A stretch of 64,000 bases of DNA from a virus (Duplodnaviria; Caudoviricetes): IMG/VR virus record IMGVR_UViG_3300032007_000009, one strand, 5' to 3'. A program made the position numbers and the translations under genes. Positions 14,597 to 59,768 of the stretch are shown here, piece after piece. Numbering within the stretch: the first letter of the stretch is position 1; every line of letters starts with the position of its first letter. The notes under the pieces were generated by a model that had not been told where the DNA came from, made no database searches, and saw nothing but the letters and a program-made list of their open reading frames with translations.

Positions 14597-14923
14597 ATGA
14601 AAACTATAGATAAATATATTATAGAAAAATCTGAAGTAAATGAATTTTTTAAAAAACAAGATGAGTTTACAAAAAAGATGATTAATATGTGGAAAAAGGA
14701 TGAACGTCTTAAACCATTTGATCTATATTTTAAATGGAAGAATCATGATATATCTACTGGGGAGTGGAGAAAAATAAGCAAAGAAAATATTCGTAAAATG
14801 AGATTTACAGCATCAGATATGCTTAATGATGAATATGATAAAGAAAACCCAGATGAAGAATTAATACAGATATTAGATGCAATAGAAATGGAACTTATAA
14901 ATATAGAAGGTCTTTTTAAATAA
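14597..14923 (+). CDS. Hypothetical protein with capsid-targeting-like N-terminus
   Basis: MKTIDKYIIE. Confidence 0.6.
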   Translation: MKTIDKYIIEKSEVNEFFKKQDEFTKKMINMWKKDERLKPFDLYFKWKNHDISTGEWRKISKENIRKMRFTASDMLNDEYDKENPDEELIQILDAIEMELINIEGLFK

Positions 14924-15375
14924 TGATTTATATAACACCAGATAATAAAAAAAGAAAAAATAATAAATATAAATCAATATTTTTTGCAGGAACTATAGAT
15001 AATGGAAATTCTATAAATTGGCAGGAAGAACTTTCTAAATTATTGGAACAACTTAATGTCAATATATATAGTCCAAGATGTTTAAATTGGAATCCTAATT
15101 GTACAAAGAATGAATTAATTAATCAGATTAAATGGGAGCAAAAACATTTAGATAATTCCGATATGATTATTATGGTTTTATTAGATAATTCAAAATCTCC
15201 TGTTAGTTTACTTGAATTAGGGTTATATGCAAAAAGTAAAAAGATAATAGTTTTTTGTACAGATAAATTTTATAGATATGATAATGTACAATTAACATGT
15301 GAAAAATATAATATACCATTAATTAATAGTACAGATATTGATATAATAGTAGAAAACATAATTAAATATATATAA
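14923..15375 (+). CDS. Nucleoside 2-deoxyribosyltransferase-like protein
   Basis: SIFFAGTI, WQ, SPR, QIKWE, SPVSLLELG. Confidence 0.8.
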   Translation: MIYITPDNKKRKNNKYKSIFFAGTIDNGNSINWQEELSKLLEQLNVNIYSPRCLNWNPNCTKNELINQIKWEQKHLDNSDMIIMVLLDNSKSPVSLLELGLYAKSKKIIVFCTDKFYRYDNVQLTCEKYNIPLINSTDIDIIVENIIKYI

Positions 15376-15899
15376 TGAAACGATTATCATATATTATAGA
15401 AAAGGGTATAGAAAAGGGTGGAGCTAAAATTACTAACTCTGTTGATAATACTGATGAATATGATACAGTAAAACAAATTACTCAAGATACAGAAACACAT
15501 TATGTATCTGATTATGGGGATTCATCAAGATTATTAGATACTATGCGAGAACTTGGTCTTTTAGAGAAAGATCATGGTGATGGCGGTGTTTTATATCCTA
15601 ATGGATTGCAAGGTATATTAACTTATTGGTTAAGTTTTTCAAATATGCCTACATTATGTCGATTCTTAGTAGCATTTGATAAATATGCTGAGAAATTCTC
15701 TTACGATAAAGTTCATGATGGACAATGGCATATGTGTTTCGATATTCATGATGATCCTTTAACTGGTGTTGATAATAAGACAGTTACATATTTATTACAA
15801 TATAAATCAAAAACAAAGGATCTTGATGAAATTGATAAAGCTATTGATGATTTATGTGAAGAACTAAAAAATAAATGGGGTGATTATCCAGGAAAATAA
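15375..15899 (+). CDS. Hypothetical protein with capsid-targeting-like N-terminus
   Basis: MKRLSYIIE. Confidence 0.6.
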   Translation: MKRLSYIIEKGIEKGGAKITNSVDNTDEYDTVKQITQDTETHYVSDYGDSSRLLDTMRELGLLEKDHGDGGVLYPNGLQGILTYWLSFSNMPTLCRFLVAFDKYAEKFSYDKVHDGQWHMCFDIHDDPLTGVDNKTVTYLLQYKSKTKDLDEIDKAIDDLCEELKNKWGDYPGK

Positions 15900-15903
15900 A
15901 TTA

Positions 15904-16014
15904 ATGAAATAGAAACATAAAGATTTAAAATAAAATATATAGAGGTAATATATCAAATATACTGCTTATATTTGTAAAGTCTGTGAAAAATGGCATTTAG
16001 GAATTAAAAAATAA
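15904..16014 (+). pseudogene. Decayed small zinc-ribbon gene
   Basis: One frame reads MK*KHKDLK*NI*R*YIKYTAYICKVCEKWHLGIKK* (YxCxxCxxWHxG motif). Confidence 0.45.
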
Positions 16015-16041
16015 ATTAAATAAATAAATACATAAACAATT

Positions 16042-16809
16042 ATGAAATATATAAAAAAATATGAAAATGGTACAGCATATAATGCTGATAGTTTAATATT
16101 ACCTAATATATCTTTAATATCATCAGATAATAGTTTACATATGAATCCTGATACTAATACATCTTCTCAATATGATTATGTTGAAATAGGAGGAATTAAA
16201 TGGGCTACAAAAAATTTAGGTGCAACAAGAATAGGAGATTATGGATTATTTTTCCAATGGGGTGATACACAAGGTTATACTTATCAACAATTACTTAATA
16301 ATGAACATAATTTATCGATAGAAAATCATACATTATATAATTCTGAATCTAATAATTCAGAAGATGCAATTATAAAATATAATGAGACAGATCAAAAAGA
16401 AGAATTAGAATTAATTGATGATCCTGTTCATGCAGCATTAGGTGGTAATTGGAGAACACCAACTGAAACTGAATATATTACTTTATTTGAACATACAAAA
16501 CAAATATGGGTATATAATTATAATAATACAATTGGTGGTCTTTTACTTATTGATAGTAGTGATGGTGGTAAACAATTATATTTTCCTGCATGTGGGTATT
16601 TTGAACCAATTAATGCATCTCAAAATAATTGGGAGAGTAGTAACGAATATGCTAAATATTTGACTAGTACCGTATCTGGATTTTGTAATGGTATTGAAGT
16701 TGATATTATGGAATTCTTTGAAGATAAAGATGACTATCCTATTAATTATACTAATTTTACTTATGCATTACCAGTTCGAGGTATAATAGATGATAATTTA
16801 AATAATTAA
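16042..16809 (+). CDS. Fib_succ_major/CLec-like domain protein with MKY[IL]K leader
   Basis: YVEIGGIKWATKNLGA, YGLFFQWG, GGNWRTPT, LYFPACG, LPVRG. Confidence 0.7.
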   Translation: MKYIKKYENGTAYNADSLILPNISLISSDNSLHMNPDTNTSSQYDYVEIGGIKWATKNLGATRIGDYGLFFQWGDTQGYTYQQLLNNEHNLSIENHTLYNSESNNSEDAIIKYNETDQKEELELIDDPVHAALGGNWRTPTETEYITLFEHTKQIWVYNYNNTIGGLLLIDSSDGGKQLYFPACGYFEPINASQNNWESSNEYAKYLTSTVSGFCNGIEVDIMEFFEDKDDYPINYTNFTYALPVRGIIDDNLNN

Positions 16810-16811
16810 AT

Positions 16812-17615
16812 ATGACATCTTGTATAGTTACATTTATAAAAAATGAACATGAATATCTTGACGAATGGATTCAATATCATTTGAATTTAGGTATAAATCA
16901 TATATTTATATTTGAAGATATTGATAGTTTAAGTCATAAAAAAATTATTGACAAATATTCTTCAGATAATGTTACATTAAATAATGTATCAATATTAAAT
17001 ATTAATAAATCTAATTATGGGCATAGTTGGGATAAACTTAGACAAGATATATATTTTAGATTTGGATTGTTCTGGGTTAAAACCAATTATACCTATAATT
17101 GGTGTTTTCCTATTGATAATGATGAATATATAACTTTATCTAATAATGATTATACATTAGTATCTATTTTAAATAAATATTCTGATTATGATGCTGTAGT
17201 ATTATATTGGCAAAACTATAATGCTAATGGACATATAACAAAACCTGATTATACAAATAATGGACTTATTGAGACTTATACTCAAAAATGTGAACGACCA
17301 CATAAAGATCCTAATTGGAAGAATACTAAAATAATGTATAATATGAAAACATATAAAAAATATTATTATATAGCTTCACATTCATTTTATAAATTAATTA
17401 ATTGGTGTAAATCAGATTTTTCAAAAGAATTAGGCAATATTACATATGATAATATTTATTTAAGACATTATATTACTAAATCATGGGAAGAATATGTTTG
17501 GAAATTAAAAGTTAGAGGGATGTTTCATGTAAACCATAGAAATTATGATGATTTTTTTATAATAAATAAAGATTTAATTTCAAGAAAAGATGAATTAATC
17601 AAAATGATAAATTAA
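16812..17615 (+). CDS. Glycosyltransferase (GT2/GT92-like)
   Basis: IKNEHEYLDEWIQYHLNLG, DxD (IDNDEY), HYITKSWEEY. Confidence 0.85.
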   Translation: MTSCIVTFIKNEHEYLDEWIQYHLNLGINHIFIFEDIDSLSHKKIIDKYSSDNVTLNNVSILNINKSNYGHSWDKLRQDIYFRFGLFWVKTNYTYNWCFPIDNDEYITLSNNDYTLVSILNKYSDYDAVVLYWQNYNANGHITKPDYTNNGLIETYTQKCERPHKDPNWKNTKIMYNMKTYKKYYYIASHSFYKLINWCKSDFSKELGNITYDNIYLRHYITKSWEEYVWKLKVRGMFHVNHRNYDDFFIINKDLISRKDELIKMIN

Positions 17616-17636
17616 TAAATAATAGTATATTATATT

Positions 17637-18131
17637 ATGAAATCAATTAATAATTTTTTAACAGAAGAAAAATTAGAAAATATTTATACCAATTTGGCAA
17701 AAGGTACAATTTTATATATTGTACTAGATAAAGATAAATGGACAGATAATAGTAATAAACATAAATGTTATCAAATAACAGTTAAAGATGTTACAAATAG
17801 AGGTAAAGAAACTTTATTTAGTGGAAATAAAGTAAATACTACTTCTGTTACACTTGAATCAAATCCATTTAAGATATCTAACTTTTTAATATTTGATAAA
17901 CAAAATGAAACAAAAAAGGAATTTTTTGTAAAACGTATACATGCAGAAGGATCAATTTGGTATTTTGCAGGAATATCTAAAGAAGCAGTTATCAGTGCTT
18001 TAGATTCTAAATATCGTAAACAATTAGAAGAAGTAGATGATAAGATATTAAAACTTCAAAAGGATATTGAAGAGTTAAATACAGAAAAACAACAAATTGA
18101 AGATAAATTAAAAATTGAACTCGAAGATTAA
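17637..18131 (+). CDS. Hypothetical protein with capsid-targeting-like N-terminus and C-terminal coiled coil
   Basis: MKSINNFLTE. Confidence 0.6.
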   Translation: MKSINNFLTEEKLENIYTNLAKGTILYIVLDKDKWTDNSNKHKCYQITVKDVTNRGKETLFSGNKVNTTSVTLESNPFKISNFLIFDKQNETKKEFFVKRIHAEGSIWYFAGISKEAVISALDSKYRKQLEEVDDKILKLQKDIEELNTEKQQIEDKLKIELED

Positions 18132-18133
18132 TA

Positions 18134-18601
18134 ATGAAAAGATATTCAGAGTTATTTGAAAATAAAGACGATATTAAACATTACGTAGATGGTATTTTAG
18201 TATCTGAGGATAATAGAATACTAATTTTACGTCGTGCTAATTATATGAAGTTATTTGGTGGTTGTTGGGGATTTGTTGGTGGCTCTATAGATAAAAAAGA
18301 TAAAGATAGTAAATCTGCTATTATAAGAGAAATTAAAGAAGAGACAGGTTTAGAACTAACATTTAACGAACAACAAAAAATGAAATCTATAGATAAACAA
18401 GGACATGAAAAAGAAGATGGTTCAATAGGTTCTGATACAGAATATTGGTTAATCCAATTAGAAACAACTCCAGATATTAAAATATCTCGTGAACATTCAA
18501 AATATGAATGGGTTGGACCTGAAGAAATAAAAGAACGTAATCGTAAATTTATGTCAGATGTTTTTCATTACATACAAAAATATTTTAACGGTGATTTGTA
18601 A
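18134..18601 (+). CDS. Nudix hydrolase with capsid-targeting-like N-terminus
   Basis: Nudix box GG...AIIREIKEETGL; SREHSKYEW; MKRYSELFE. Confidence 0.9.
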   Translation: MKRYSELFENKDDIKHYVDGILVSEDNRILILRRANYMKLFGGCWGFVGGSIDKKDKDSKSAIIREIKEETGLELTFNEQQKMKSIDKQGHEKEDGSIGSDTEYWLIQLETTPDIKISREHSKYEWVGPEEIKERNRKFMSDVFHYIQKYFNGDL

Positions 18602-19266
18602 TGCCAATTATACATAAACCTGAACAAACAACATTAGGACACGTTTTTGATCTTAAGTCATTAGATAAGAAGGTATATACAGATGAAGAAATTAAATCTT
18701 TCAGATTGGATGAATCAATAAATAATCATCCATTAGCAAGAAAACCAACCTCTATAAGATCTAAATTAGCGTATAAAGAAATATTAAGAAACTTAAAACC
18801 AACAAAGAAATATGTATTACCTGGACAGGTAGTATTATTTAATTATTCACAACCAAAATTTAAGGAAGAACTTGAATATTATGATAATTATCCATTTTGT
18901 ATAAGTTTTGGTATTATAAGAACTGAAGATGGTAATATTCGTGAATGCATGTTAAATCTCCATTATTATCCCCCATTTACAAGAGCACGAATATTACAAC
19001 AAGTATTTACACATTTTAGACCATATTTTGAAAAATATTTTAATGAAGCAGGTACAAAACCAAATACTGTTATGTCTTATTCAATGTTAAAACATTTACT
19101 TAAGGTTAATCAGAAAATTGCATTTGGAACAAAAATGTATATTCCTGTACTTAGAGGTATTACATATAATATTCCTTCAAGGTTATTCCCAACAGCCTTT
19201 TACACAGAAGGTAAATTTAGTAAAGCAACATTACAACAAATATATCATTTTTGGAGACAATTTTAA
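18601..19266 (+). CDS. DNA end protector (T4 gp2-like)
   Basis: PGQVVLFNY...LEYYDNYP...LNLHYYPPFTRARIL. Confidence 0.75.
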   Translation: MPIIHKPEQTTLGHVFDLKSLDKKVYTDEEIKSFRLDESINNHPLARKPTSIRSKLAYKEILRNLKPTKKYVLPGQVVLFNYSQPKFKEELEYYDNYPFCISFGIIRTEDGNIRECMLNLHYYPPFTRARILQQVFTHFRPYFEKYFNEAGTKPNTVMSYSMLKHLLKVNQKIAFGTKMYIPVLRGITYNIPSRLFPTAFYTEGKFSKATLQQIYHFWRQF

Positions 19267-19268
19267 TT

Positions 19269-20030
19269 ATGAAATACTTAAAACTTTTTTCAACACAAAC
19301 TCAATATCAATCATATATAAAAAATAATTGGATATCTCCACATATCTATAAAATACAAGAAAATAAAAATGTTGATTATGAAGATAAATATATACCACTT
19401 GAATACATAAGTAGTACTCAAACAGGTGGACAGTATATTGATTTAGGATGTCATTTAATGGAAAACACTGACGATATTAAAATTGATATTAAATTTAATA
19501 TTAAAGGTGTAGGTAAATCATCTTCAGGTGGCGATCCTAATTTGGCAACATTAATTTCATCACAACCAGAAGTTAGTCCATGGCCAGGATTTATATTGAG
19601 ACGTCAAGCGGTGGATAATTATAGAATTCATTTACAAACAAAATGGCAGTTTACAAATTCTGCAAAACGAGTTGGTGATGCTAAATATGATTCTAAATAT
19701 TTATCATATGTACAATCTGCTAATAATTGGATAAGTGTTGATTATCCAGGTATATATGAGTTTACAGAAATATTAGATAACATACCACAATCACAAGTCA
19801 ATGATTGTACATGTACATTATTCTGTGCATTAGATAGTTCAAATAATCCTTTTAGATATTGTTATGCTGATTTATATTATTTGAAATTTACAAAGGGAGA
19901 AACTGTTGTAAGAGATTTAGTTCCTGTTTTAAATAAACGTAATATTCCTGGTTTATATGACAAAGTAAATAAAAAATTCTATCCATCACAAGGAGATACA
20001 AATTTTGTAGCTGGTCCTATAAAATCATAA
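19269..20030 (+). CDS. Putative lectin-like (beta-sandwich) virion adhesin with MKY[IL]K leader
   Basis: ATG at 19269; EYISST..GQYIDLG...VRDLVPV...GLYDKVNKKFY...FVAGP pattern typical of phage fibre-tip domains. Confidence 0.55.
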   Translation: MKYLKLFSTQTQYQSYIKNNWISPHIYKIQENKNVDYEDKYIPLEYISSTQTGGQYIDLGCHLMENTDDIKIDIKFNIKGVGKSSSGGDPNLATLISSQPEVSPWPGFILRRQAVDNYRIHLQTKWQFTNSAKRVGDAKYDSKYLSYVQSANNWISVDYPGIYEFTEILDNIPQSQVNDCTCTLFCALDSSNNPFRYCYADLYYLKFTKGETVVRDLVPVLNKRNIPGLYDKVNKKFYPSQGDTNFVAGPIKS

Positions 20031-20073
20031 ATAAATTTTATTTTTATAAAATACTTATATAAATAATGAATAT

Positions 20074-20664
20074 ATGAAAGATTTAAGAACATTTATATAT
20101 GAATCATCTAATGAATTAATATCAATGATTAAAAGAATGATGGGTTCAGTTGATTATAATAAATTGCAATCGTGTTCTGAGCAAGATCAAGATAAATTTG
20201 ATAAACAAAAAGAAAATGAACTTTTAATTACAAAAGATTTTAATGAAGGTGATTTTACAATTATTGGAACTACTGAATATTATTCAAAAGTAAAAGATGG
20301 TGATTTTAATAAATTAAGTATAAAAGAAAAAAGTAAATTTAATACTCAAAATGGCGACTTAATTATTATGAAAAATGATAAACCAGTTTATTTTATTGAT
20401 GTTAAGATATCTGATAAATATTTAGGAACAATATCATTAGGATCATTAGTTAATTTCAATAAGGACGGATATTATCTTTTAATTTGTAAAACTGGTAAAT
20501 TCTTTAAAGTAATATCACATAAAGAAGTGGAAGATGCCGTTAAAAATAATAAACTTAATTTAAATGCTCCTGTTGATTCATATAAAGGATATGATGTAAA
20601 ATGGGAAGGTGAAGATATGACATCTGAATGGTTTATTAAAGGAAATGATCTTAGAAAAATATAA
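20074..20664 (+). CDS. Putative PD-(D/E)XK nuclease-fold protein with capsid-targeting-like N-terminus
   Basis: MKDLRTFIYE; GDLII...FIDVK. Confidence 0.5.
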   Translation: MKDLRTFIYESSNELISMIKRMMGSVDYNKLQSCSEQDQDKFDKQKENELLITKDFNEGDFTIIGTTEYYSKVKDGDFNKLSIKEKSKFNTQNGDLIIMKNDKPVYFIDVKISDKYLGTISLGSLVNFNKDGYYLLICKTGKFFKVISHKEVEDAVKNNKLNLNAPVDSYKGYDVKWEGEDMTSEWFIKGNDLRKI

Positions 20665-20672
20665 TTATAATT

Positions 20673-21728
20673 ATGAAAAGATTTAGTCAAATAAATGAAG
20701 TATGTGCTACATCTTCAAAAAATCCTGGAAATTTATTAGTCAATACAGGAGTAACTAATCATTATACACCTATTCAAAATATATTAACAAATATTAAAAA
20801 TCTTTATTGTGTACAATTAGGTATTGTTGCAGATCAAGGTGAAGATGGAGTTTCTATTAAGTTAACTAGTTCATTATTTACAAATGAGCGTAAGGTTAAT
20901 GAATTATTATATACATGTCTTTATAATGATGTCAATTTTGAACAGTCTTCATTAGCTGCATATATACAAGCACAAGGATTAACTAAAATAACTAATGTTA
21001 ATATTGGAGGATATATTATTGTTTATTTTTCACCTGATGATATATCTACTGCAGAAGATCCATATTCAATGTGTAAATCATGTTGTCCAACTCCTGAAGA
21101 AGCTTGTGAATCAATTTTAGATGAATTTGAAATTACATCTATGATTAAAGAAGATGATGGTGAGGAAGAAGTAAAGAATATAACTTTAGAAAAAATAATG
21201 GAACTTATTGATTCTAAAGATAAAGTTAAAGCTGCTAAACAATTAGAATTATTAGTATCTCAAGAAATTAGTTTACCACGTGAATTTTATTTTGCTGCTA
21301 TTAAATTTAAGACTGATGACGAAGCAATAGCATTACGTTGGAAATATACTAAGAAGCTTCCTGGGGGTAAATCAACAGAAAATACTCGTTCAATTCTTCA
21401 TATATTTGGTAAAGGAGATGAAGGAATATGGGTACAAGATTTTGCTGAAGATTCTATTGTTACATTACCTGATGAAGTTAAGAAACTTATTGAATCAGTA
21501 TTAGATTTATTAGAAGCTAAAGAAACTGATGACCCTTCAATCTTTAAACTTGATGGTGAACGTAGAGAACGTAAGGATGATGAAGATGATAAAGATAAGG
21601 ATGATGACAATAAAGACGATAAAAATAAAGACAATAATAAAGAAGAAAAGAAAGATAAGAAGACTGATGATAATGATGACGATGGTGAAGATGATTCTTC
21701 TCGTGGTGATGATACAGATCTTCTTTAA
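20673..21728 (+). CDS. Putative prohead core/internal protein with D/K-rich tail
   Basis: MKRFSQINE; internal IKE site; highly charged C-terminus. Confidence 0.5.
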   Translation: MKRFSQINEVCATSSKNPGNLLVNTGVTNHYTPIQNILTNIKNLYCVQLGIVADQGEDGVSIKLTSSLFTNERKVNELLYTCLYNDVNFEQSSLAAYIQAQGLTKITNVNIGGYIIVYFSPDDISTAEDPYSMCKSCCPTPEEACESILDEFEITSMIKEDDGEEEVKNITLEKIMELIDSKDKVKAAKQLELLVSQEISLPREFYFAAIKFKTDDEAIALRWKYTKKLPGGKSTENTRSILHIFGKGDEGIWVQDFAEDSIVTLPDEVKKLIESVLDLLEAKETDDPSIFKLDGERRERKDDEDDKDKDDDNKDDKNKDNNKEEKKDKKTDDNDDDGEDDSSRGDDTDLL

Positions 21729-21741
21729 TTAAATATAAATT

Positions 21742-22101
21742 ATGAAAGATATTCGTATATTCTTGGAAGGTAAGACTATTGATGAAGTAACAATAAAAGA
21801 TATCAAAATAAAAAAAGAAGTTGATGTTGTATATTATTGCTATGATAAAGAATCATTAGATAAAGTTTCAAAACAATATGAACATGTTGGTAAGTATTGG
21901 ATAGATAAAGGTTTCTTCCTTGCAACATTAAAGAATAAATCAACATGGGTTGTTAATATGGATAAAGAATTTCATATGCATACTTGGAGACCTAATGCTG
22001 ATTTTATTGAATATAATGATAATGAAGAAGAATATACATATAAAGAACTTCTTGAATTACTTGAAAAAGGAGAAACAATGCTAGTTGTGATTAATAAATA
22101 A
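21742..22101 (+). CDS. Hypothetical protein with capsid-targeting-like N-terminus
   Basis: MKDIRIFLE. Confidence 0.6.
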   Translation: MKDIRIFLEGKTIDEVTIKDIKIKKEVDVVYYCYDKESLDKVSKQYEHVGKYWIDKGFFLATLKNKSTWVVNMDKEFHMHTWRPNADFIEYNDNEEEYTYKELLELLEKGETMLVVINK

Positions 22102-22118
22102 TATATATAAATAAAATT

Positions 22119-22661
22119 ATGAAAAAATTAAATGAATACATATCAATTAACGAAGGTGTAAAATTACCTGATGATAAACTTAATATCATTGAAAAATTTT
22201 TAAATGATGAAAATAGATATGACTTTAATAAAACTATTGTTTGTGATGTATTAAATCAGTTTGATAATGTAGCAACAGAAATTATTGCAGATATTGCGGG
22301 ATATTTAGTTGAAGCATACATTTGGGATCAAATGCATAAACTTATTACTAATAAAGAATTTTGTGATGTATGGTTTGATGGTAATAATAAGAGTAGTGAA
22401 GAATTTAAATTAAGTCCTTTGGCAAGACGAAACAATAAAGATAATAATGGATCTGCAATATATTGGGATTTTACTATTAATGGAATAGATGAAAAATTTG
22501 AAATTAAAGCACGTTCAACAAAAGAAGGTAAGAAAAATGGTGGATATCGTTTTACTGTAAATCAATCATCAGATAAAAATTTGATTTATATTTTAGTTGA
22601 ATATTCAATATCTGGAGATGAAATTAATATAGGAAATATTAAAATAACAAGAAAATTATAA
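22119..22661 (+). CDS. Putative PD-(D/E)XK nuclease-fold protein with capsid-targeting-like N-terminus
   Basis: MKKLNEYISINE; GYLVE...WDFT...FEIKAR. Confidence 0.5.
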   Translation: MKKLNEYISINEGVKLPDDKLNIIEKFLNDENRYDFNKTIVCDVLNQFDNVATEIIADIAGYLVEAYIWDQMHKLITNKEFCDVWFDGNNKSSEEFKLSPLARRNNKDNNGSAIYWDFTINGIDEKFEIKARSTKEGKKNGGYRFTVNQSSDKNLIYILVEYSISGDEINIGNIKITRKL

Positions 22662-22679
22662 ATATATAAAACGACATAA

Positions 22680-22880
22680 ATGAAATCATTAGAAGAATTT
22701 GTTATTGAATCGGAAAAACAAAATGAAGATGTATTTGTTGTTTATTTTGGAGATGGTGTAATGGAAAATTTCTATTATACTGAAGATGAAGCAAAAGCTA
22801 AAGTCGAAGAATTAAATAAAGAAAATTCTGATGCAAAGGCTTCATATAAAAAAGAATCAAAATCAAAAATTGAAAAATAA
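22680..22880 (+). CDS. Small protein with capsid-targeting-like N-terminus
   Basis: MKSLEEFVIE. Confidence 0.6.
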   Translation: MKSLEEFVIESEKQNEDVFVVYFGDGVMENFYYTEDEAKAKVEELNKENSDAKASYKKESKSKIEK

Positions 22881-22904
22881 AATATTTAATATAATATATA
22901 GTTA

Positions 22905-22931
22905 AGTAGGATATCATTGAGATATCCTACT
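22905..22931. terminator. Intrinsic terminator closing the 14-23 kb late block
   Basis: AGTAGGATATC-ATTGA-GATATCCTACT; same stem core as 7283. Confidence 0.75.
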
Positions 22932-23015
22932 ATTTGTTTATATATTTGTTTATAACATATTGAATTATTTAAATAATTATTTCTATATTAAAACTGTTAA
23001 TTAATATTAATAATT

Positions 23016-23483
23016 ATGAAAGTATTTAGATTAAGACATAAAAAATATAAAGGAGATGTTGTTTTTGGTCTTCCTTCACCTTATAATGAAAGTGTAGGTG
23101 AAAAAAAGATTAATGAATTATTTAGTAAGATGAAACCATGGATGCATGCTGTACCTTATTATAAGAAAAGTAAATTTAGTTTTGTTTCATCTAATGCAAT
23201 ATTAACATTTTTAAATAATGGTAAGTTTACTGAAGAAGAATTGAATGATGTAAATAATAGTTTCTATGTTGAAATATATGAAGTAGAGATTTGGAGTGCA
23301 GGATTATCTAAATTTTTATGTACATATTTTGATGATGAAATAATTCCTGATACATATGATACTATTACTATAAAAGAATTAATTAATTGGACATATAAAA
23401 CTGTTTATCAGGATCCAGTTCCAAAAGCAGATATTAACTTGAGTAAAACATCATATTATTCAGATGTTAAATTGTATTATTAA
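23016..23483 (+). CDS. Hypothetical protein
   Basis: ORF preceded by CTATATT at 22983. Confidence 0.6.
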   Translation: MKVFRLRHKKYKGDVVFGLPSPYNESVGEKKINELFSKMKPWMHAVPYYKKSKFSFVSSNAILTFLNNGKFTEEELNDVNNSFYVEIYEVEIWSAGLSKFLCTYFDDEIIPDTYDTITIKELINWTYKTVYQDPVPKADINLSKTSYYSDVKLYY

Positions 23484-25803: not shown

Positions 25804-26103
25804 TTATGGTAATATATCAGTTAAATAACACCACTTATCTTGATCTGTTAATTTTTTTCTATTATTATCAGCAGTATATTCACCATCATTCATATAATCT
25901 GCAATTTTGACATTATTATATTTATCATAGTGCTTCTTATTATTAATTTCTCCACCAACAATAATAATTATAGGTATAATTTTATTATATTCTTTATCAC
26001 CAGGTTTAATAAATGATGAATCTTCTGGTAATTCAGAACCATTATGCCATAAATTTTTAGTATCAATTTTTGATTCTAAAATAAATTCATTAATATTTTT
26101 CAT
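25804..26103 (-). CDS. Hypothetical (DUF551-like) protein with capsid-targeting-like N-terminus
   Basis: MKNINEFILE; WH...ELP...WCYLTDILP. Confidence 0.55.
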   Translation of the reverse strand: MKNINEFILESKIDTKNLWHNGSELPEDSSFIKPGDKEYNKIIPIIIIVGGEINNKKHYDKYNNVKIADYMNDGEYTADNNRKKLTDQDKWCYLTDILP

Positions 26104-26126: not shown

Positions 26127-26531
26127 TTAAAAATTATTTGAAACTAATAAGAATGATGTATCATCTCCTTCTGTTGAACTTCCATTAATAATTATTACAT
26201 CTTTAAAATTAAATTTAAATATTTCAAATTCTGGTTCATCTTCATCTTCACCAATTGGAATATAATTTCCATCTTCCCAATAATCATTATCTGACATCCA
26301 TTCAGAAAAATCTCCAGTTACCATTGCAGATTCCCCATATGAAAATGTTAAATTTGTATCTACATTTTCAAATATTTCATTTATATCACTATTCTTTATT
26401 TTTTTATAAAAATTTTTAACTAATTTTTTTGCTTCTTCAAATGAAACATTTGTATTATCAAAATCAATATTTTTTAAGATTTTTGATAATTCATTTTTAT
26501 TTTCTAAAATAAACTCTTTTAAGTTTTTCAT
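26127..26531 (-). CDS. Acidic hypothetical protein with capsid-targeting-like N-terminus
   Basis: MKNLKEFILE; TTATTTTTA upstream at 26556-26564. Confidence 0.6.
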   Translation of the reverse strand: MKNLKEFILENKNELSKILKNIDFDNTNVSFEEAKKLVKNFYKKIKNSDINEIFENVDTNLTFSYGESAMVTGDFSEWMSDNDYWEDGNYIPIGEDEDEPEFEIFKFNFKDVIIINGSSTEGDDTSFLLVSNNF

Positions 26532-26647
26532 ATTATTATTTTATTTATTTATATTTAAAAATAAATTAAACAAACAAATATATACTATTAAATTTGAATT
26601 TTTTAAATAATATGCATTAACTTACTATATTATAATATAATTTTATT

Positions 26648-50933: not shown

Positions 50934-51020
50934 ATTCAATGGTTAATAAAGAAACTATGACTGCAGATATTTCAAAAATGTTTGAAGATTATGATAAAAA
51001 TACAATAACTACAGATCAGG

Positions 51021-51146
51021 ATGCAATATATAAGCAATAATGATGAATGGGTAGATTATCCTTATATTGGAATTGGTGAAAAACCTTATTCTAAAAATAA
51101 AAAGAAATTAACTGAAGAACAATTAGAACGTATTCTAGGAGGTTAA
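51021..51146 (+). CDS. Microprotein (41 aa) ending in LTEEQLERILGG
   Basis: Open frame between neighbouring small ORFs. Confidence 0.5.
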   Translation: MQYISNNDEWVDYPYIGIGEKPYSKNKKKLTEEQLERILGG

Positions 51147-51149
51147 TAT

Positions 51150-51311
51150 ATGAATTTAAAAGATTATGATATATTTGTAGATTTTGGTAACGGTGATAAA
51201 TTCTATTTAAAAGATTTTATCATTAATGAAGAAAATAAAAAAATAATATTTAAAGGATGTAAAGGTCAAATGACATGGGTTAAGATTGATGCTTTATATC
51301 CAGTAAAATAA
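51150..51311 (+). CDS. Microprotein (53 aa)
   Basis: MNLKDYDIFVDFGNGDKF...LYPVK. Confidence 0.55.
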   Translation: MNLKDYDIFVDFGNGDKFYLKDFIINEENKKIIFKGCKGQMTWVKIDALYPVK

Positions 51312-51330
51312 TTATATTAATTTAGACAAA

Positions 51331-51358
51331 ATGAAGGACATACTAGTATGTCCTTCAT
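51331..51358. terminator. Perfect 28-bp palindrome between convergent genes
   Basis: ATGAAGGACATACT/AGTATGTCCTTCAT. Confidence 0.75.
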
Positions 51359-51393
51359 GAATATGAAATGTAATGTAATAACTAAATAAATAA

Positions 51394-52356
51394 TTAATAA
51401 GTAAGCATAGCAATAACATAGTAGTTATTGCCCTTAGTGTAGTTGTGGATATCGCCATTATCAGTATCAACAACATATGCGTGCCATGTACTACTTTCTG
51501 TCGAGCTCCAATGTCGGTTATTAGCTAACGAATTAACACAATCAGTTGAATATATTGCAGAAATTTGTGTTAACTTAGTATTAATATCGTCACGTAAAGC
51601 AACTATCATACTCATTTCACCACCCGCACCAAGATACCAATCACCTGCATTTGTTCCTACAGTATGATAGCGAGCACAACAACAAGCAGCAGGAGTATAA
51701 CCTACATTTGAATTATTTGTTATTGATGTATCTGTCATCCATGTTGACTGTGATGTTGCAGTAGCAAGAATCTTATCTGTTTTGTTTTTACCATCTATAT
51801 CTGTTACTATATATTGATTTACTGTACCTAATGCAGATATATTCCATTCATTATTTGCATCGAATACAGAAGGAATTAAACTAGATGTTTGTGTTTGCTA
51901 TGGTGTAGTTAAATAACCAGAACCATATATATCCCATTGATATACTTTTCCTATGTTATCAATTGTAGACATATCAGTTCCATTATTACCCCAACCCATA
52001 CCTTGTGCTGTTAATGATCCCGTTTCTGGTGTTGTATAATTCATATATTTAAGTGACATAAAACGAGCAGGTTCATTCTCGCCAAAGAATCCAGTTCCTG
52101 CGACACAAAGTCCAATTGGAGTATAACCCAAGCTTGGATCTAATATAGTTGAGTCAACCTTCTTGTTTCCTGCAGCATTAGCATAAAGTATATCTAATAT
52201 ATTATATGATGGTGGTGCAATATATGTATTATAGTGTACTTCATTTTGCTGCTTACAAAATGATACAACATCTTTACCCTCTGTTTCCATAAAAATAGAA
52301 CTAACTAAATATGCTTCATATAAAGAATGTTTAGAAAAGCGTTTAAGATATTTCAT
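51394..52356 (-). pseudogene. CLec-fold receptor-binding-like gene (DGR-target-like) interrupted by one in-frame TAG at 51898-51900; pseudogene or readthrough
   Basis: Track ORFs 52356..51898 and 51738..51394 are in frame and joined by 53 open codons; C-terminus GDWYL...E...WSSTE...AY...K...YVIAM. Confidence 0.75.
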
Positions 52357-52443
52357 AATATTAATATTTCATAATATATATTTATTTAAAAATAAAACTT
52401 AAAAGTTCTATATTAAGAATAATATTTGACTTATTATGTATAT

Positions 52444-54300: not shown

Positions 54301-54545
54301 CATTGATAATAATTAAAATTGTATTATTTATATTATTAATAAGAATAATTTTCTTGACGATTGGACATTTAGTTATTGTATTTTATAAAGATGCGACAAA
54401 AATGGCTGTTAAAGAAATAATAAAAGATCCTGAAGATTTTGTAAGATCTGAACATATATGTAAGTTTATGTATAATATGATTTGGTTCTATTTGTTTATC
54501 AAAATTCTTATAGGAGTATTTTCTAATCAAATAACAATTAATTAA
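54297..54545 (+). CDS. Small membrane protein (2 TM)
   Basis: Two hydrophobic segments. Confidence 0.55.
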   Translation: MTLIIIKIVLFILLIRIIFLTIGHLVIVFYKDATKMAVKEIIKDPEDFVRSEHICKFMYNMIWFYLFIKILIGVFSNQITIN

Positions 54546-54547
54546 CT

Positions 54548-55204
54548 ATGAATGAAAGTAAGACAATATTTTTTATATTAGATTCTTTTGAATTATATGA
54601 TTTTAAAAAATTATATAATAATTTAGATTATGTATGTTGTTATTCTTATATTGATACTGAATATGCAATTGATAATAAAATACTAAATATCGTAACATAT
54701 GATATTGGACATCTATCATTTGATTTAGAAACATTAGGATATAAAATATTTATTGGGTATAATGGTAAATATAAACATTTTACAGTTGGAATGTCTACTA
54801 CAAATGGTAAAGAACTTAGATTTGGGCATAATCTCAGAAAACTTTTGATTGCAGGAGCTTTAGATAATGATTTAGGAATTGAACGAAAAAAATTTTATTA
54901 TGATATGAATAAATCAACATCAGAATTATTAGCAGAACAATTAACAAAAGAAAAATTAGAAGATATATCATCTCTTCCCGAATATTACAAAGGCAAACAT
55001 CAATATGATCCAACACCAGAAGATTTTGAAATTATCAAAAAACTATTAAAAGGATTTAAAGAAAATGATGGATGTTCATATTATACTAATGATTTTGGAC
55101 AAATATTTGTAAAAACAAACTCTGCGTCATGGAAAGCATTAGCTGGTAGAGAATGGTTAATAGATAAAGATAAAATGACTTGTAAATTAATAGCAATGAA
55201 TTAA
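54548..55204 (+). CDS. Hypothetical protein
   Basis: ORF track. Confidence 0.6.
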   Translation: MNESKTIFFILDSFELYDFKKLYNNLDYVCCYSYIDTEYAIDNKILNIVTYDIGHLSFDLETLGYKIFIGYNGKYKHFTVGMSTTNGKELRFGHNLRKLLIAGALDNDLGIERKKFYYDMNKSTSELLAEQLTKEKLEDISSLPEYYKGKHQYDPTPEDFEIIKKLLKGFKENDGCSYYTNDFGQIFVKTNSASWKALAGREWLIDKDKMTCKLIAMN

Positions 55205-55206
55205 TT

Positions 55207-55662
55207 ATGTGGATTAAAGAATTAATTAAACAATTATTTTGTAAACATGAATATTATTTTGTTCGTAATATTTATGGAGACGAAATAAATTTGCATGGAG
55301 GATATCGTTCCGAATGGAAATGTAAGAAATGTGGTAAAATTGAATATCGAAAGTATTTACAAACAACTACAATACTTGATAAACTCGAAAAATTGTATGA
55401 TGAATATTATAAAAACAAATATGCTGAATGGTGTTCATTAAGATCTGAAACATTAAATCATATGCTTGAAGTAATGATAGATAATGCAAAGAATGGATTA
55501 TGTTATGCAGACTTTGTTTTATTCTGTGAAGAAAAACATAATGATAAAAATTATTATGAAAAATGGTTTGATGAAAACAAACTTAAATATGAAAGCAAAC
55601 TTTTAGGTAATGAAAAATGTGATGAATGTAATAAGTATGAATTTCACATTCGTTGGAGATAA
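55207..55662 (+). CDS. Zinc-ribbon (DUF1660-like N-terminus) protein
   Basis: LFCKHEY...CKKCGK. Confidence 0.55.
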   Translation: MWIKELIKQLFCKHEYYFVRNIYGDEINLHGGYRSEWKCKKCGKIEYRKYLQTTTILDKLEKLYDEYYKNKYAEWCSLRSETLNHMLEVMIDNAKNGLCYADFVLFCEEKHNDKNYYEKWFDENKLKYESKLLGNEKCDECNKYEFHIRWR

Positions 55663-55674
55663 AATTAAAATATT

Positions 55675-56058
55675 ATGAATAAAACAAATTATCATTTAAC
55701 ACAAGGTATTAGAATATATTCTATTGATTATTTAATTAATAATGAATTAACTGAAACAGATTTAGCACATCTTTTTGATACACCAAGTCTGAAATATTCA
55801 ATTATTATTGGTATGTTTAGATTTATTAATAGTAAAAAACGTAATAGTGATATTGTTAAACTAATTACAAAAAATAATAAATGGATATTCAATAATGAAT
55901 GGACTGAAGACCAATTCTTAACATTTGAAAATCAATTAGTACAATTATATAAAAATATTTATTACTATGGAGATAGAAAAGCTTTATCTATGGCTCAAAA
56001 CTTCATGATTATGTATGGGTTTAAAGTAAAAAATAATAACATTAATTTAGATAAATAA
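55675..56058 (+). CDS. Hypothetical protein
   Basis: ORF track. Confidence 0.55.
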   Translation: MNKTNYHLTQGIRIYSIDYLINNELTETDLAHLFDTPSLKYSIIIGMFRFINSKKRNSDIVKLITKNNKWIFNNEWTEDQFLTFENQLVQLYKNIYYYGDRKALSMAQNFMIMYGFKVKNNNINLDK

Positions 56059-56114
56059 TATGTAAAATATTTTTTATGATAAAACATATTAAAATTCATT
56101 CATAGATAGCATTT

Positions 56115-56202
56115 ATTCATCTTCTAAGCTTATAAAAATAGTTTTTAATATAATTTATAATATCACAAAAATAAACGTTTTTCATAAGCTTAGAAGATGA
56201 AT
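56115..56202. repeat. 19-bp perfect inverted repeat with 50-bp spacer
   Basis: ATTCATCTTCTAAGCTTAT (56115-56133) / ATAAGCTTAGAAGATGAAT (56184-56202). Confidence 0.85.
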
Positions 56203-56285
56203 TTTTTAATTAAATATTTTGTAATAAAAAAATAAATTTTACTATATTTAAATATTATATCCACAAAAATATAAATATATATAAC

Positions 56286-56921
56286 GTGGAAATTTTTATA
56301 GGAATTGATCCTTCATTAAATAGTACTGGATTATGTTTACAATTTTATGAAGACAATAAGTTTGTTAAAGATATGTATTATATTGTGAAACCTAATAAAT
56401 TAACTAAAAAAGAATTGGCAGCACAAGATAATATAATTAATTTTGATTATGCTTTATATGAAAAGATAGATCTTGATATGTATAAAGATAATAATTTATT
56501 TTCTGAATATTGGAAAACTATTAATATGATACGAATAGTTAAGACTATTAAAGAATGTATTAAAGATAATATTCAAGGAAGAAAAAATTATAAATTATAT
56601 ATAGTACAAGAAGGAATTAGTTATGGATCATCAATAAGAACAAAATCAGTATTTGATTTAGCAGGATTAAATTATATGATTCGTAATGAATTCATTGAAA
56701 AAGAAAATGTAGTATTATTTATTGCGCCTCCTACACATATAAAGAAATTTGCTACAGGTATAGGTAATTGTAAAAAAGAACAAGTTATAGAATTATTTAA
56801 GACAACACATAATGAGTTAACAGAAAAACTACCTAAAGTTGATGATATTGCTGATGCATATTATATGAGTCAATATGCGAGACATTTATATTTAGAAAAC
56901 AACAAAGAGGATAACGATTAA
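56286..56921 (+). CDS. ruvC: RuvC-like Holliday junction resolvase
   Basis: IGIDPSLNSTG, VQEG, PTHIKKFATG.G...K, DDIADA. Confidence 0.85.
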   Translation: MEIFIGIDPSLNSTGLCLQFYEDNKFVKDMYYIVKPNKLTKKELAAQDNIINFDYALYEKIDLDMYKDNNLFSEYWKTINMIRIVKTIKECIKDNIQGRKNYKLYIVQEGISYGSSIRTKSVFDLAGLNYMIRNEFIEKENVVLFIAPPTHIKKFATGIGNCKKEQVIELFKTTHNELTEKLPKVDDIADAYYMSQYARHLYLENNKEDND

Positions 56922-56932
56922 GTTATCCTCTT
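56905..56932. terminator. Bidirectional terminator
   Basis: AAGAGGATAAC-GATTAA-GTTATCCTCTT. Confidence 0.75.
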
Positions 56933-56952
56933 ATTTATTTATTTCAAATATA

Positions 56953-58227
56953 TTATTTCTTATTTTCTTCTAACATTCTTAAATCTTTTGCAACTTTATT
57001 GAGTAACATAAGTTTTACTGGATCATTTTTACATTGTTCTGCAAGCATAGCTATCTTTTTCTTACGAATTGAATATTGTGCTTCTTTATTTGCTTCAAGT
57101 TGTTCTTTAATTTGTTGTGCTTCTGGATCTAATTTCTTACAATCTTCATTAATTCTATCTTCAAACATTGATTTAAGATCTATACCTGAAACTTTAATAA
57201 CATCATTCAATGCTTCTGCCATATAATCATAGTTCTTTGTGAATGAACCAGAATGAACAGAATTAAATACTGTCAAATTAACATTATCTTTTCCTTCAAT
57301 AATTGCACATGTTGTACCATTCATTGAAGAAAGAATCTTACAATTATCTATTAAAACTATATTTTCAATATTTTCAAATACTGTTGCAATTGCAGAAGAA
57401 ACCTTCATTAATTGCATCTTTTCATTCATTGGTAATACTTTTGATAAATTGTTGCAATATTCAACAAATGCAATGTGATCTTCAAATTTTTCAGAAATGT
57501 TAGGAGCAGTGAATTCTAAAACATTTTCATTGATTTCAAAACGATATGTTCCACGTGCACCCTTATATTCATAATAAATATTTTCACCGTTACGTCCGAA
57601 ATTTTCTAACAATGTATTTACTTTATTAAATGTTTCATCTTCACATTCTTTAACCAATTCTACTTTACTTTCACCAATCTTAAATACTGAACCATAAGCT
57701 TTAAAGAATGATTCCTTAGCTTCATTAGTAAATACATAACTAATTGGATTAACTACAGTATAATTAGGAGTTTGAGCTTCTGTAATTTGAGTCTTGTAAA
57801 CTTCTTTGCAGATAGCACGGAATTCAGGAATGTACTGAATATTCTTTAAAGAACCTGCCTTAATGTAACTAATTACTTCAGCTTCATTCATTTCAAGAAG
57901 TTTTTCAACTTGTTGAACACCAAGTTTATTGATGTAATTGTAAGTTGAATTATTTGCAGAGATACTTTCACATGCAGACGCAAGTTTCCAAGATATGTTA
58001 TTTTCTTTAATAAACTTATTTACAGATTCTAAAATATTGGTTAAACCTGTATCAAAACCGTACTTAGATGCTTCTGCAACAAAGCCATTAACTAGTGAAC
58101 AAGATATAGGATTATTATAACAAAATCCTTTATATCTACTAAGCATTTCCTTACCTGCCTCTGTTATAGCCTCTGTCTTTGTAATAAGTTCGGCAAAGTT
58201 AAGGTTTGTCAATAATTTTTCGCTCAT
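56953..58227 (-). CDS. Putative head core/structural protein
   Basis: Likely start MSEKLL at 58227; TTATTTTTA upstream; several IxE sites (ITE, INE). Confidence 0.5.
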   Translation of the reverse strand: MSEKLLTNLNFAELITKTEAITEAGKEMLSRYKGFCYNNPISCSLVNGFVAEASKYGFDTGLTNILESVNKFIKENNISWKLASACESISANNSTYNYINKLGVQQVEKLLEMNEAEVISYIKAGSLKNIQYIPEFRAICKEVYKTQITEAQTPNYTVVNPISYVFTNEAKESFFKAYGSVFKIGESKVELVKECEDETFNKVNTLLENFGRNGENIYYEYKGARGTYRFEINENVLEFTAPNISEKFEDHIAFVEYCNNLSKVLPMNEKMQLMKVSSAIATVFENIENIVLIDNCKILSSMNGTTCAIIEGKDNVNLTVFNSVHSGSFTKNYDYMAEALNDVIKVSGIDLKSMFEDRINEDCKKLDPEAQQIKEQLEANKEAQYSIRKKKIAMLAEQCKNDPVKLMLLNKVAKDLRMLEENKK

Positions 58228-58349
58228 ACTTATATATTTGTTATATTTATAGATTTCTTTAATATAATTAAAAATAATTATTTCTAATATATATAAAAAT
58301 AAAATAAAATAAAAAATTATATACAATTTCTTATATTTTTTAAATTATC

Positions 58350-59042
58350 TTATTTAAATTCGTTTGGATCATCATAACCTAATTGAGATTCTGCTCTCTT
58401 CTTAAGTTCATCTTCATGTCCAAAATAGTTTTTTGCTAAAATTGGATAACAGTCATAATATTTAACATCATAATCATAATGGAAATCCATTCTAAACATA
58501 TTTACTTGTTGGTCAGTATTCTTTCCACGTTTTCCTTTAAAGTCAAATACTTCAAATGTATCAGGATTCCATCTATCATATATAATCAAATCACGTTCTT
58601 CTACATCATCAGGATCAATATCTTCTCCTTTACGTCCTTGAATATAATTATCTGATTCTTTATATGCTTTATATTGTTTTTCAATTTCAGTTAAATCAAA
58701 TTGCTTAATCCAATCTAAATTGATTTTTTGTTTTTCTAACTTATCATGATTACTTAAAAAGAAACCTCTAAATCCTTTTTCTGTTGATAAACCATATTTC
58801 TTATAAATTTGATATATCATTGATTTAGGCCAAGTTGATTTAGTTATAAATTTCTTAAATGTTGTACGTAATTCTGTTTGATTATCTAATGAAATTTTTT
58901 GGCCTTTCATATCTTCACAGAATCTTTTAATATTCATTAATACTTCAGATGCTTCAGAATCTTTAATATTAAAAACATTATTTAATGTAAGTCCTTCATT
59001 AAGTTGAAATGATTCTTTTATAAATTCTAAAATTGATTTCAT
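58350..59042 (-). CDS. Hypothetical protein with capsid-targeting-like N-terminus
   Basis: MKSILEFIKESFQLNE. Confidence 0.6.
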   Translation of the reverse strand: MKSILEFIKESFQLNEGLTLNNVFNIKDSEASEVLMNIKRFCEDMKGQKISLDNQTELRTTFKKFITKSTWPKSMIYQIYKKYGLSTEKGFRGFFLSNHDKLEKQKINLDWIKQFDLTEIEKQYKAYKESDNYIQGRKGEDIDPDDVEERDLIIYDRWNPDTFEVFDFKGKRGKNTDQQVNMFRMDFHYDYDVKYYDCYPILAKNYFGHEDELKKRAESQLGYDDPNEFK

Positions 59043-59072
59043 ATAATTTAGTATAATTTTATAAATAAAATA

Positions 59073-59468
59073 TTAATCTTTTTCTATCAAATTCCATATT
59101 ATATCAAAATCTTCTTTATTAAATATAGGGTAAAAAAATCTATTGATAAATATTCCTAATACATAAGATGAATTAGAATTATTTTTCTTAATATAATCAT
59201 TAAGGTATCCATCATATGTATTTACTTCATTTCCTTCAGAATTAATAGACTTCATAAATTTTGTTCTATACCAAGATAAATTTCCATTATCACTGATTAA
59301 GAACATTGGTTTTCTTGACCAATCATGTTTTTTATTATCCCACCCTTTAACACGTTTAATTATTGATCCCCAAATAGAATTATCATCTGTACTTAATGCA
59401 TTTAATATTTGAGTATCTATTTTATTATCTGATTTGTCTTCTTTAATTAATTCAGTTAAATTCTTCAT
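59073..59468 (-). CDS. Hypothetical protein with capsid-targeting-like N-terminus
   Basis: MKNLTELIKE. Confidence 0.6.
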   Translation of the reverse strand: MKNLTELIKEDKSDNKIDTQILNALSTDDNSIWGSIIKRVKGWDNKKHDWSRKPMFLISDNGNLSWYRTKFMKSINSEGNEVNTYDGYLNDYIKKNNSNSSYVLGIFINRFFYPIFNKEDFDIIWNLIEKD

Positions 59469-59480
59469 ATTTATTATTTA

Positions 59481-59768
59481 TTATAATTTCCATCCCATAT
59501 ACCCACAGATGACTCCCATGACTAATTTAGATGATAATAAACTACCGAATGAACCTTTAGGATCACAACCTAAAGCTTTACATATAGCAGCACCTAATTT
59601 AGGACCCAAAGTAGAACCAAATGCTAATCCACCTAAAGCTCCTAATATTCCTTCATCTATAGGTAAATTGTTTTCTTTTGCTTCTTGTAATTTTTGAATT
59701 ATACTATCATATGATAATACTTCATTAATTTGAGATTTATCTTTAACAATTTCTTCTATTGATTTCAT
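59481..59768 (-). CDS. Glycine-zipper membrane-active protein with capsid-targeting-like N-terminus
   Basis: MKSIEEIVKDKSQINE...IDE-GILGALGGLAFGSTLG... Confidence 0.6.
   Translation of the reverse strand: MKSIEEIVKDKSQINEVLSYDSIIQKLQEAKENNLPIDEGILGALGGLAFGSTLGPKLGAAICKALGCDPKGSFGSLLSSKLVMGVICGYMGWKL

Follow-up and report, generated by a model that had tools for sequence, protein, structure and literature searches.

A T4-like N-terminal leader on unrelated late proteins of an uncultured rumen phage is a candidate capsid-targeting tag

The 64,000-nucleotide window analysed here is taken from the IMG/VR virus record IMGVR_UViG_3300032007_000009 (G000; window = bases 138281-202280 of the 235,986-bp record; G+C 25.8%; estimated completeness 83%), which represents a large, uncultured rumen phage that is T4-related by portal type. 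Fourteen proteins encoded in the window, and 32 on our curated list for the whole record, begin with a leader of about ten residues that precedes otherwise unrelated protein bodies. We consider it likely, by analogy with T4 and from the genomic context, that this leader is a capsid targeting sequence (CTS) of the T4 type that directs proteins to the prohead and is removed by a prohead protease of the S77 family. Open reading frames (ORFs) were obtained by simple greedy calling, which gave 314 in the 236-kb record and 588 in the 376-kb relative G001. Positions are those of the window unless they are preceded by the word genome.

A preliminary description of the window listed 14 such N-termini, and all of them have ATG starts and the exact peptides, on ORFs of 66-351 aa. 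It also held that the sequences behind the leader are dissimilar, which an all-versus-all BLASTP of the bodies (residue 21 to the end, E<1e-3) bore out with zero matches; genome-wide, the sole related bodies among the tagged proteins are those of one paralog trio outside the window. The leader has the consensus M-K-x-(I/L)-x-x-(Y/F)-(I/L)-x-E and is about 100-fold enriched at protein starts relative to shuffles in two genomes. The strict regular expression ^MK.[ILVFMY]..[ILVFYM][ILVFMT].[ED] matches 27 of the 314 ORFs of the record, compared with an expectation of 0.22 from 2000 within-protein shuffles of residues 2-30, none of which gave more than 3 matches, and of 0.29 from the rate of the same pattern inside proteins, so the motif is far commoner at real starts than in composition-matched shuffles. 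The corresponding figures for G001 are 34 of 588 ORFs versus 0.35 expected.

The same constraint emerges from a non-circular test that was conditioned on M1, K2 and E10 only and that covered the 271 MK-start proteins of the record and G001. Glu occupies position 10 in 79 of these proteins and any other position in 8-35. Among the 79, hydrophobic residues fill positions 4, 7 and 8 in 92, 76 and 87%, respectively, against a background of ~43%, positions 3 and 6 shun hydrophobic residues, and position 11 is S/G/A in 47. The 61 strict matches in both genomes have I/L/V at position 8 in 60 cases, Glu at position 10 in 58 and Asp in 3, and S/G/A at position 11 in 39. One could suppose that the shared start reflects paralogy, or a nucleotide-level or translational constraint on the late mRNAs of an AT-rich phage that lacks Shine-Dalgarno sites, as almost all tagged genes have AAA at codon 2 and AT-rich starts and one tagged trio is truly paralogous. 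We regard this explanation as having very little chance of being correct. The codons at the conserved leader positions vary (ATA/ATT/TTA and TAT/TTT) while the residue class is kept, which indicates that the constraint acts at the protein level, and an extended form of the leader has Leu12 encoded by all four CTN codons within near-identical DNA. Moreover, the bodies have unrelated folds, the DNA upstream of the tagged genes is not conserved, and untagged late genes lack the motif. On the grounds of codon variation, unrelated bodies, unconserved upstream DNA and motif-free untagged late genes, both paralogy and translation-level constraint were rejected.

The leader of which we propose a CTS function occurs in four forms, namely a 9-residue form, a 10-residue form, a double-site form and an extended 22-residue form (MKQITSYIQEGLRINKNT). 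A second x-N-E site within residues 11-20 is present in 5 of the 32 tagged proteins versus 4 of the 282 untagged ones. The extended leader (MKQITSYIQEGLRINKNTKIxK, ~22 residues, ~66 nt) is carried by six or more genes, located at two loci far apart (genome 801-2709 and 228866-231131), where the DNA is near-identical and then diverges abruptly, with every CTN codon in use at Leu12. It may represent a second class of address tag or the boundary of a recombination cassette.

The capsid targeting sequence carried by IPI, IPII and IPIII, which are internal proteins of T4, was reportedly described by Mullaney and Black in 1996. Reviews of the T4 CTS are available (PMC9026906, PMC3012670). In IPIII, the first ten residues are enough for incorporation into the head, with residues 4 and 7 serving in targeting and residues 8 and 10 in processing; an Asp at position 10 permits targeting while blocking processing; gp21 cleaves after L/I-x-E; and the CTS has been suggested as an evolutionary route for loading various proteins (PMC9026906). 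T4 ipII and ipIII do begin with MKTYQEFIAE, as the preliminary description said (tblastn), and this peptide fits our regular expression. The leader of the rumen phage shares with the T4 CTS its length of about ten residues, the MK start, hydrophobic residues at positions 4, 7 and 8, Glu at position 10 and the L/I-x-E cleavage logic. In both cases, the leader is carried by otherwise unrelated, fast-evolving proteins that are expressed late (here judged by promoter class) with the head genes, and the rumen lineage has a T4-type portal, with an S77 protease in relatives. The two systems differ in scale and cargo. T4 has three such internal proteins, whereas at least 32 are tagged here and at least 34 in G001; the T4 internal proteins are small and have been called basic, whereas many of the tagged proteins are acidic (pI 4-6) and some are enzymes of up to 411 aa. 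Further differences are the 9-residue and 22-residue leader forms of the rumen clade and the fusion of its protease to the scaffold. To judge from the literature searched, the novelty lies in the scale, the enzymes carried, the variant leaders and the lineage, the kind of signal itself being known; our search found no paper on a multi-dozen CTS repertoire.

The strongest outside evidence comes from Sphingomonas phage PAU (NC_019521), in which about 20 proteins start with MK(T/S)(L/I)xx(L/M)(Y/F)E, many of them continuing with K-L-N-E-(A/S). Thirteen of the PAU leader proteins are encoded around the portal, protease, scaffold and capsid genes. The leader is present on four of the five PAU proteins noted as 'internal capsid protein' in GenBank (gp142, gp154, gp199 and gp270), and the scaffold gp152 carries it as well. 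PAU differs from the rumen phage in having Glu at position 9, a much more uniform leader, and separate genes for the protease and scaffold. A literature search found no paper describing the PAU leader or the experimental basis of the PAU notes.

The record encodes a portal of the T4 gp20 type (genome 94414-96180, minus strand), and the closest portals in the phage collection are those of an uncultured 462-kb phage, PAU (the closest from a cultured phage within that collection), other huge uncultured phages, Tenacibaculum phages PTm1 and PTm5, and the Lak megaphages. Nearer relatives are represented by 16 related IMG/VR contigs with portal identities of 73-89%, three of which were searchable as whole records, and in all 16 contigs 1-4 tagged ORFs lie within 10 kb of the portal. 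Directly downstream of the portal of the record is a 143-aa ORF (genome 93963-94394, minus strand) that matches phrog_15610 'protease' (E=3e-28) and, faintly, Peptidase_S49; the next gene encodes a 232-aa protein that weakly matches the gp5/VgrG OB domain. A degenerate DNA pattern of the leader was counted, along with control hits, in six genomes, with 31 hits versus 1 control hit in the record, 57 versus 1 in G001, 9 versus 0 in T4, 8 versus 1 in PTm1, 19 versus 9 in Lak-B4, and 22 versus 8 in LR756500. A large expansion of the leader characterises the rumen clade and, in a 9-residue form, PAU.

The tagged genes are associated with one of two promoter-like motifs. Motif A, TTATTTTTA(T/A)A, often runs into TATAAATA, the T4 late-promoter consensus, and is found 20-85 nt 5' of structural operons on the minus strand, among them those for the portal, baseplate and fibres. 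Motif B, (A)CTATATTA, is found ~30-40 nt 5' of the start codons of replication and nucleotide-metabolism genes; examples in the window are at 3622, 22983 and 24067. When each gene was assigned to the nearest upstream motif on the same strand, 28 tagged genes fell in motif-A units and none in motif-B units, compared with 78 and 157 untagged genes, respectively (Fisher p = 8e-13, with timing inferred from promoter class). The remaining four tagged genes were left unassigned; they follow the motif A at 13983, which was missed because the ORF caller did not pick up the GTG start of the first gene of the unit. These results agree with two statements of the preliminary description. The three tagged blocks are indeed headed by motif A, with sites at 13983..13991 (plus strand, block 1), 20038..20048 (plus strand, genome 158318, directly 5' of a sub-block that starts at 20074), 26554..26564 (minus strand, genome 164844, block 2) and 59790..59800 (minus strand, block 3), and the leader is absent from the CTATATT operons, as no tagged gene is in a motif-B unit. 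The comparison of late with early genes that it suggested as a check places the tagged genes in the late/structural class only. The tagged blocks are interleaved with T4 gp4-like and gp2-like genes and adjoin baseplate genes. From the promoter class, the tagged genes would be made late, together with the head proteins.

What the leader is attached to is diverse. Pfam recognised one NUDIX hydrolase among the 14 tagged proteins of the window (155 aa, MKRYSELFE, 18134..18601, plus strand; PF00293, E=3.3e-14, domain from residue 19), and Pfam and PHROGs searches returned no family for 12 of the 14. The same searches of the 65 tagged proteins of two genomes identified two ferritin/rubrerythrin proteins, three DUF285 proteins (the paralog trio), a MoxR AAA+ ATPase encoded amid tagged genes at genome 2718-3953, a polynucleotide-kinase-like P-loop protein, a Pol-beta nucleotidyltransferase, and HAD and GNAT proteins. 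As a module, the leader is portable, being attached to proteins of unrelated folds. A homolog in G001, whose portal is ~85% identical, exists for 9 of the 32 tagged proteins versus 45% of the untagged proteins (p=0.09), and these homologs nearly always carry the leader. Rapid turnover of the tagged set is supported by this comparison at p=0.09 only. The preliminary description had gone further in proposing that a portable tag loads an exchangeable set of effectors. The unrelated folds, the agreement with the T4 CTS positions and the late operons favour that proposal, while at least two of the 14 proteins, encoded at 20074 and 20673, are widely conserved and so depart from the exchangeable part of it.

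The first of these conserved proteins (196 aa, MKDLRTFIYE, 20074..20664, plus strand) has 137 homologs, and the leader is kept in 15 of 15 that were aligned. Its AlphaFold2 (AF2) model has a pLDDT of 89, and the top structural matches found by Foldseek and VIA are nearly all PD-(D/E)XK nucleases, at middling VIA Z scores (7.2 for the D212 nuclease, 7.1 for R.SwaI, and 6.0 for another restriction enzyme). Residues D95, D109 and K111 are invariant in the family alignment. The model and its matches suggest that the protein probably has a PD-(D/E)XK nuclease fold. The second protein (351 aa, MKRFSQINE, 20673..21728, plus strand) belongs to a family with 599 homologs, and a leader of this kind is present in 24 of 24 that were aligned. 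Features of the family include a variable insert rich in Cys (CPCPCE-like) and a long, extremely acidic, Asp/Lys-rich tail that ends in DDDSRGD..LL. The AF2 model of the 351-aa protein is mediocre (pLDDT 66, two moderately confident domains), and a Foldseek search with it gave zero credible fold matches; a protein atlas search returned nothing usable for this protein and only unnamed clusters for the 196-aa protein. With its acidic tail, the widely conserved 20673 family has more the look of a core component of the head than of an exchangeable effector.

The search for a gp21-like prohead protease, the enzyme invoked in the preliminary description, was successful in relatives, with none found in the 236-kb record. 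Among the three searchable whole records, a PF03420 S77 protease scores above the Pfam cut-off in G001 (98% complete) and G003, and the portals of the relatives that encode it are 79-85% identical to that of the record. A PF07068 gp23-like capsid gene is immediately downstream of the protease gene in G001, where the protease is part of a fusion with the scaffold; the protease-scaffold family has 2621 members at E<=1e-10. We infer the cognate protease of the phage from these relatives. In addition, the longest contig listed for a 20074 homolog and for an S77 protease cluster has the same length, 467,517 bp. The G001 fusion has the top density of (I/L/V)-x-E-(S/G/A) sites in its proteome (2.98 versus 0.27 per 100 aa), as would be the case in a scaffold that is cut to pieces, and it has L-I-Y-E at residues 7-10. 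The capsid proteins of PAU and PTm1 have K-L-N-E-S and Q-I-T-E-S, respectively, near residue 20 at aligned positions. Within the window, an untagged 424-aa protein (56953..58227, minus strand, with its own motif A at 58292-58302) that is encoded just downstream of a tagged trio has the second-highest density of such sites in both genomes (1.4-1.6 versus 0.27 per 100 aa), and an (I/L/V/M)-T-E-(A/S)-G site near its residue 23 is common to its closer homologs. Its family has 124 representatives, including PAU gp111. Judging from these sites, the 424-aa protein is a candidate processed head or core protein and probably another substrate of the prohead protease.

The main rival to packaging for delivery is that the leader does target proteins to the prohead and that most tagged proteins are assembly-phase core or scaffold proteins, which would be degraded or expelled at maturation like T4 gp22, gp67 and gp68 rather than delivered. 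The leader on the PAU scaffold, the conservation and acidic tail of the 20673 family, and the crowding of cleavage motifs in the scaffold fusion and the neighbouring 424-aa protein are all in keeping with this idea, and jumbo capsids may need extra core mass. We nevertheless judge it unlikely, given that internal (I/L)-x-E sites are scarce in most tagged proteins (0-5 each) and that the stricter motif has an ordinary density in them, unlike in the scaffold. In addition, enzymes with folded catalytic domains (NUDIX, polynucleotide kinase, nuclease-like, GNAT and ferritin proteins) have no obvious scaffolding role, and fast turnover between relatives is unusual in assembly parts.

Less likely still is that the leader is a signal for a machine other than the prohead, such as a substrate or adaptor tag for the MoxR AAA+/vWA-metallopeptidase system of the phage or for some other protease, or a degron that times stability late in infection. 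The tagged MoxR ATPase amid tagged genes, the portal-side ORF that matches a 'protease' PHROG, and the occurrence of the peptide in T4 gp61.1, outside the known head proteins, would suit such a signal. The position-by-position match to the experimentally mapped T4 CTS, the internal capsid proteins of PAU, the co-location of tagged genes with head genes, and the same cleavage motif in the scaffold and capsid proteins of relatives all argue for the prohead instead.

Several observations weigh against interpreting the leader as a CTS for delivered cargo. At T4 gene starts, the strict regular expression matches ipII, ipIII and gp61.1, with two further matches inside genes 43 and 12. T4 gp61.1 is a 54-aa hypothetical protein that is encoded beside the primase gene in the early replication cluster and starts with MKTFKEFIKE (AF158101.6, 18966-19130); we know of no report that it is packaged in heads. 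The motif is thus not fully specific, and because gp61.1 matches it, the motif alone is not proof of head location. PTm1, Lak-B4 and LR756500, which have the same portal type, gave no clear sign that the motif is expanded, either around the portal or, by DNA pattern, over the whole genome, and the PAU notes are database annotations. Some tagged proteins, at least two of 14, belong to the conserved core families of 20074 and 20673 rather than to a pool of swappable effectors, and proteins like a MoxR AAA+ ATPase are unusual cargo for a head. Profile searches of the 236-kb record with PF03420 and PF07068 gave zero matches, as did tblastn of the record with the PTm1 capsid and protease(-scaffold) proteins. 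A clade-specific protease hidden Markov model run over six frames of the record returned noise only, whereas the G001 and PAU gp151 controls were strong, and no capsid, sheath or tube gene was found in the 83%-complete record. The genes in question form a module at ~199-220 kb in G001 that comprises giant proteins, the protease-scaffold, capsid, sheath and tube, and its absence fits a missing segment of an incomplete record. A product identical to the 20074 protein is present on a 289,687-bp contig, which indicates that a fuller assembly of the phage exists.

How might a CTS of this kind operate in the rumen phages? The leader, of ~10 residues, would probably form an amphipathic helix with positions 4, 7 and 8 on its hydrophobic face, by which newly made late proteins could dock on the scaffolding core as the prohead assembles. 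A prohead protease of the gp21 type (Peptidase S77) would then cut after (I/L)-x-Glu10 and, in some proteins, also at the second x-N-E site a few residues on, and the mature proteins would remain in the head with the DNA. The leader has spread to ~30-45 unrelated proteins per genome in the rumen jumbo-phage clade, or ~10% of genes. Many of these proteins would probably be released into the host with the DNA as early-acting factors for takeover or counter-defence, while a few conserved ones would be head or core components. Docking, cleavage, retention and ejection are all steps that we propose from the T4 precedent, and it is plausible that most tagged proteins are injected effectors.

Other phages deliver or process head-internal proteins in different ways. 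In phiKZ, 201phi2-1 and SPN3US, a diverged homolog of gp21 cuts many head-internal proteins after Glu, some inner proteins of phiKZ-like phages are ejected into the host, and the propeptides are mostly >100 residues (PMC5694885). The inner-body proteins of those phages resemble the proposed cargo in that many different head-internal proteins are cut after Glu, and differ from it in belonging to another lineage and in having no shared short leader, whereas the leaders here are shared and 9-22 residues long. For polyvalent proteins of phages and conjugative elements, delivery of enzymatic effector domains (ART, GNAT and signal-targeting enzymes) with the DNA has been proposed, according to the account of Iyer et al. 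cited in PMC7824862. The proposed delivery of enzyme effectors with the DNA is the point of likeness; polyvalent proteins are single giant multidomain proteins, whereas the tagged proteins are separate and small, each with its own address tag.

The remaining genes of the tagged blocks show how the leader is distributed in the window. Block 1, on the plus strand, opens with the untagged GTG-start gene (14014..14478), whose product has a TnsA-like endonuclease N-terminal domain (PF08722, E=5.9e-18) and is a candidate head-completion nuclease like T4 gp4. It is followed by tagged orphans of 108 aa (MKTIDKYIIE, 14597..14923, with a G001 homolog that is likewise tagged), 174 aa (the 9-residue form MKRLSYIIE, 15375..15899) and 164 aa (MKSINNFLTE, 17637..18131). 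Untagged genes for a nucleoside 2-deoxyribosyltransferase-like protein (14923-15375; PF15891, E=7e-25) and a family 2/92 glycosyltransferase (16812-17615) also lie within the block. Just beyond the NUDIX gene, mid-block, is an untagged gene for a T4 gp2-like DNA end protector (18601..19266; tblastn with PTm1 gp297 'DNA end protector protein', E=9e-17). Downstream of the 20673 gene are tagged orphans of 119 aa (MKDIRIFLE, 21742..22101), 180 aa (MKKLNEYISINE, with Glu at position 12 after I-N, 22119..22661) and 66 aa (MKSLEEFVIE, 22680..22880). Block 2, on the minus strand, encodes tagged orphans of 99 aa (MKNINEFILE, 25804..26103) and 134 aa (MKNLKEFILE, 26127..26531). Block 3, also on the minus strand, is headed by its motif A just downstream of genes for fibre-like and gp6-like baseplate wedge proteins. 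Its tagged trio consists of a 230-aa orphan in which MKSILEFIKE is followed by a second site, Q-L-N-E-G (58350..59042), a 131-aa orphan (MKNLTELIKE, 59073..59468), and a 95-aa protein (MKSIEEIVKD, 59481..59768) that, alone among the 14, has Asp at position 10 and that has a second site, Q-I-N-E, at 13-16.

Elsewhere in the record, recognised genes include those for the terminase, gp6-like and gp25-like baseplate proteins, collagen-like fibres and a family B DNA polymerase. The host is probably a member of the Bacteroidota, to judge from the absence of Shine-Dalgarno sites and from Bacteroidota-type lipoprotein signals. A different shared N-terminus, MKYLK(L/R)F...Y..Y, is found on fibre-like or repeat proteins, some of which are in PHROG families 35892 and 18805 (window 19269-20030 and 51898-52356 on the minus strand; genome 51894-52670, 87685-88992 and 218880-220790). 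This sequence may serve as an attachment domain that exchangeable tail fibres have in common.

Head-packaged proteins act before the phage genes are transcribed, which makes them prime candidates for roles in counter-defence and host takeover, and they are nearly unrecognisable by homology because they evolve fast. An address tag that can be read from sequence would let such proteins be listed straight from metagenomes. If our reading of the leader as a CTS holds, the T4 mechanism can handle dozens of cargo proteins, enzymes included, where T4 has three. More speculatively, and with the odds in our view clearly against the full proposal, about a tenth of the proteome of this clade could be an addressable, rapidly exchangeable 'first-strike' cargo that is delivered before phage gene expression; the leader classes may sort cargo by copy number, position or fate, and the leader would allow the injected effectors of uncultured T4-related phages to be catalogued from sequence alone. 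Such a first-strike set may include the nuclease-like protein, the NUDIX protein, the polynucleotide kinase, the nucleotidyltransferase, the GNAT protein, a Dps-like ferritin and the MoxR ATPase. A repertoire of this kind would bear on the arms races between phages and their hosts in the rumen and gut, as well as on the use of capsid-targeting tags for protein delivery by engineered phages.

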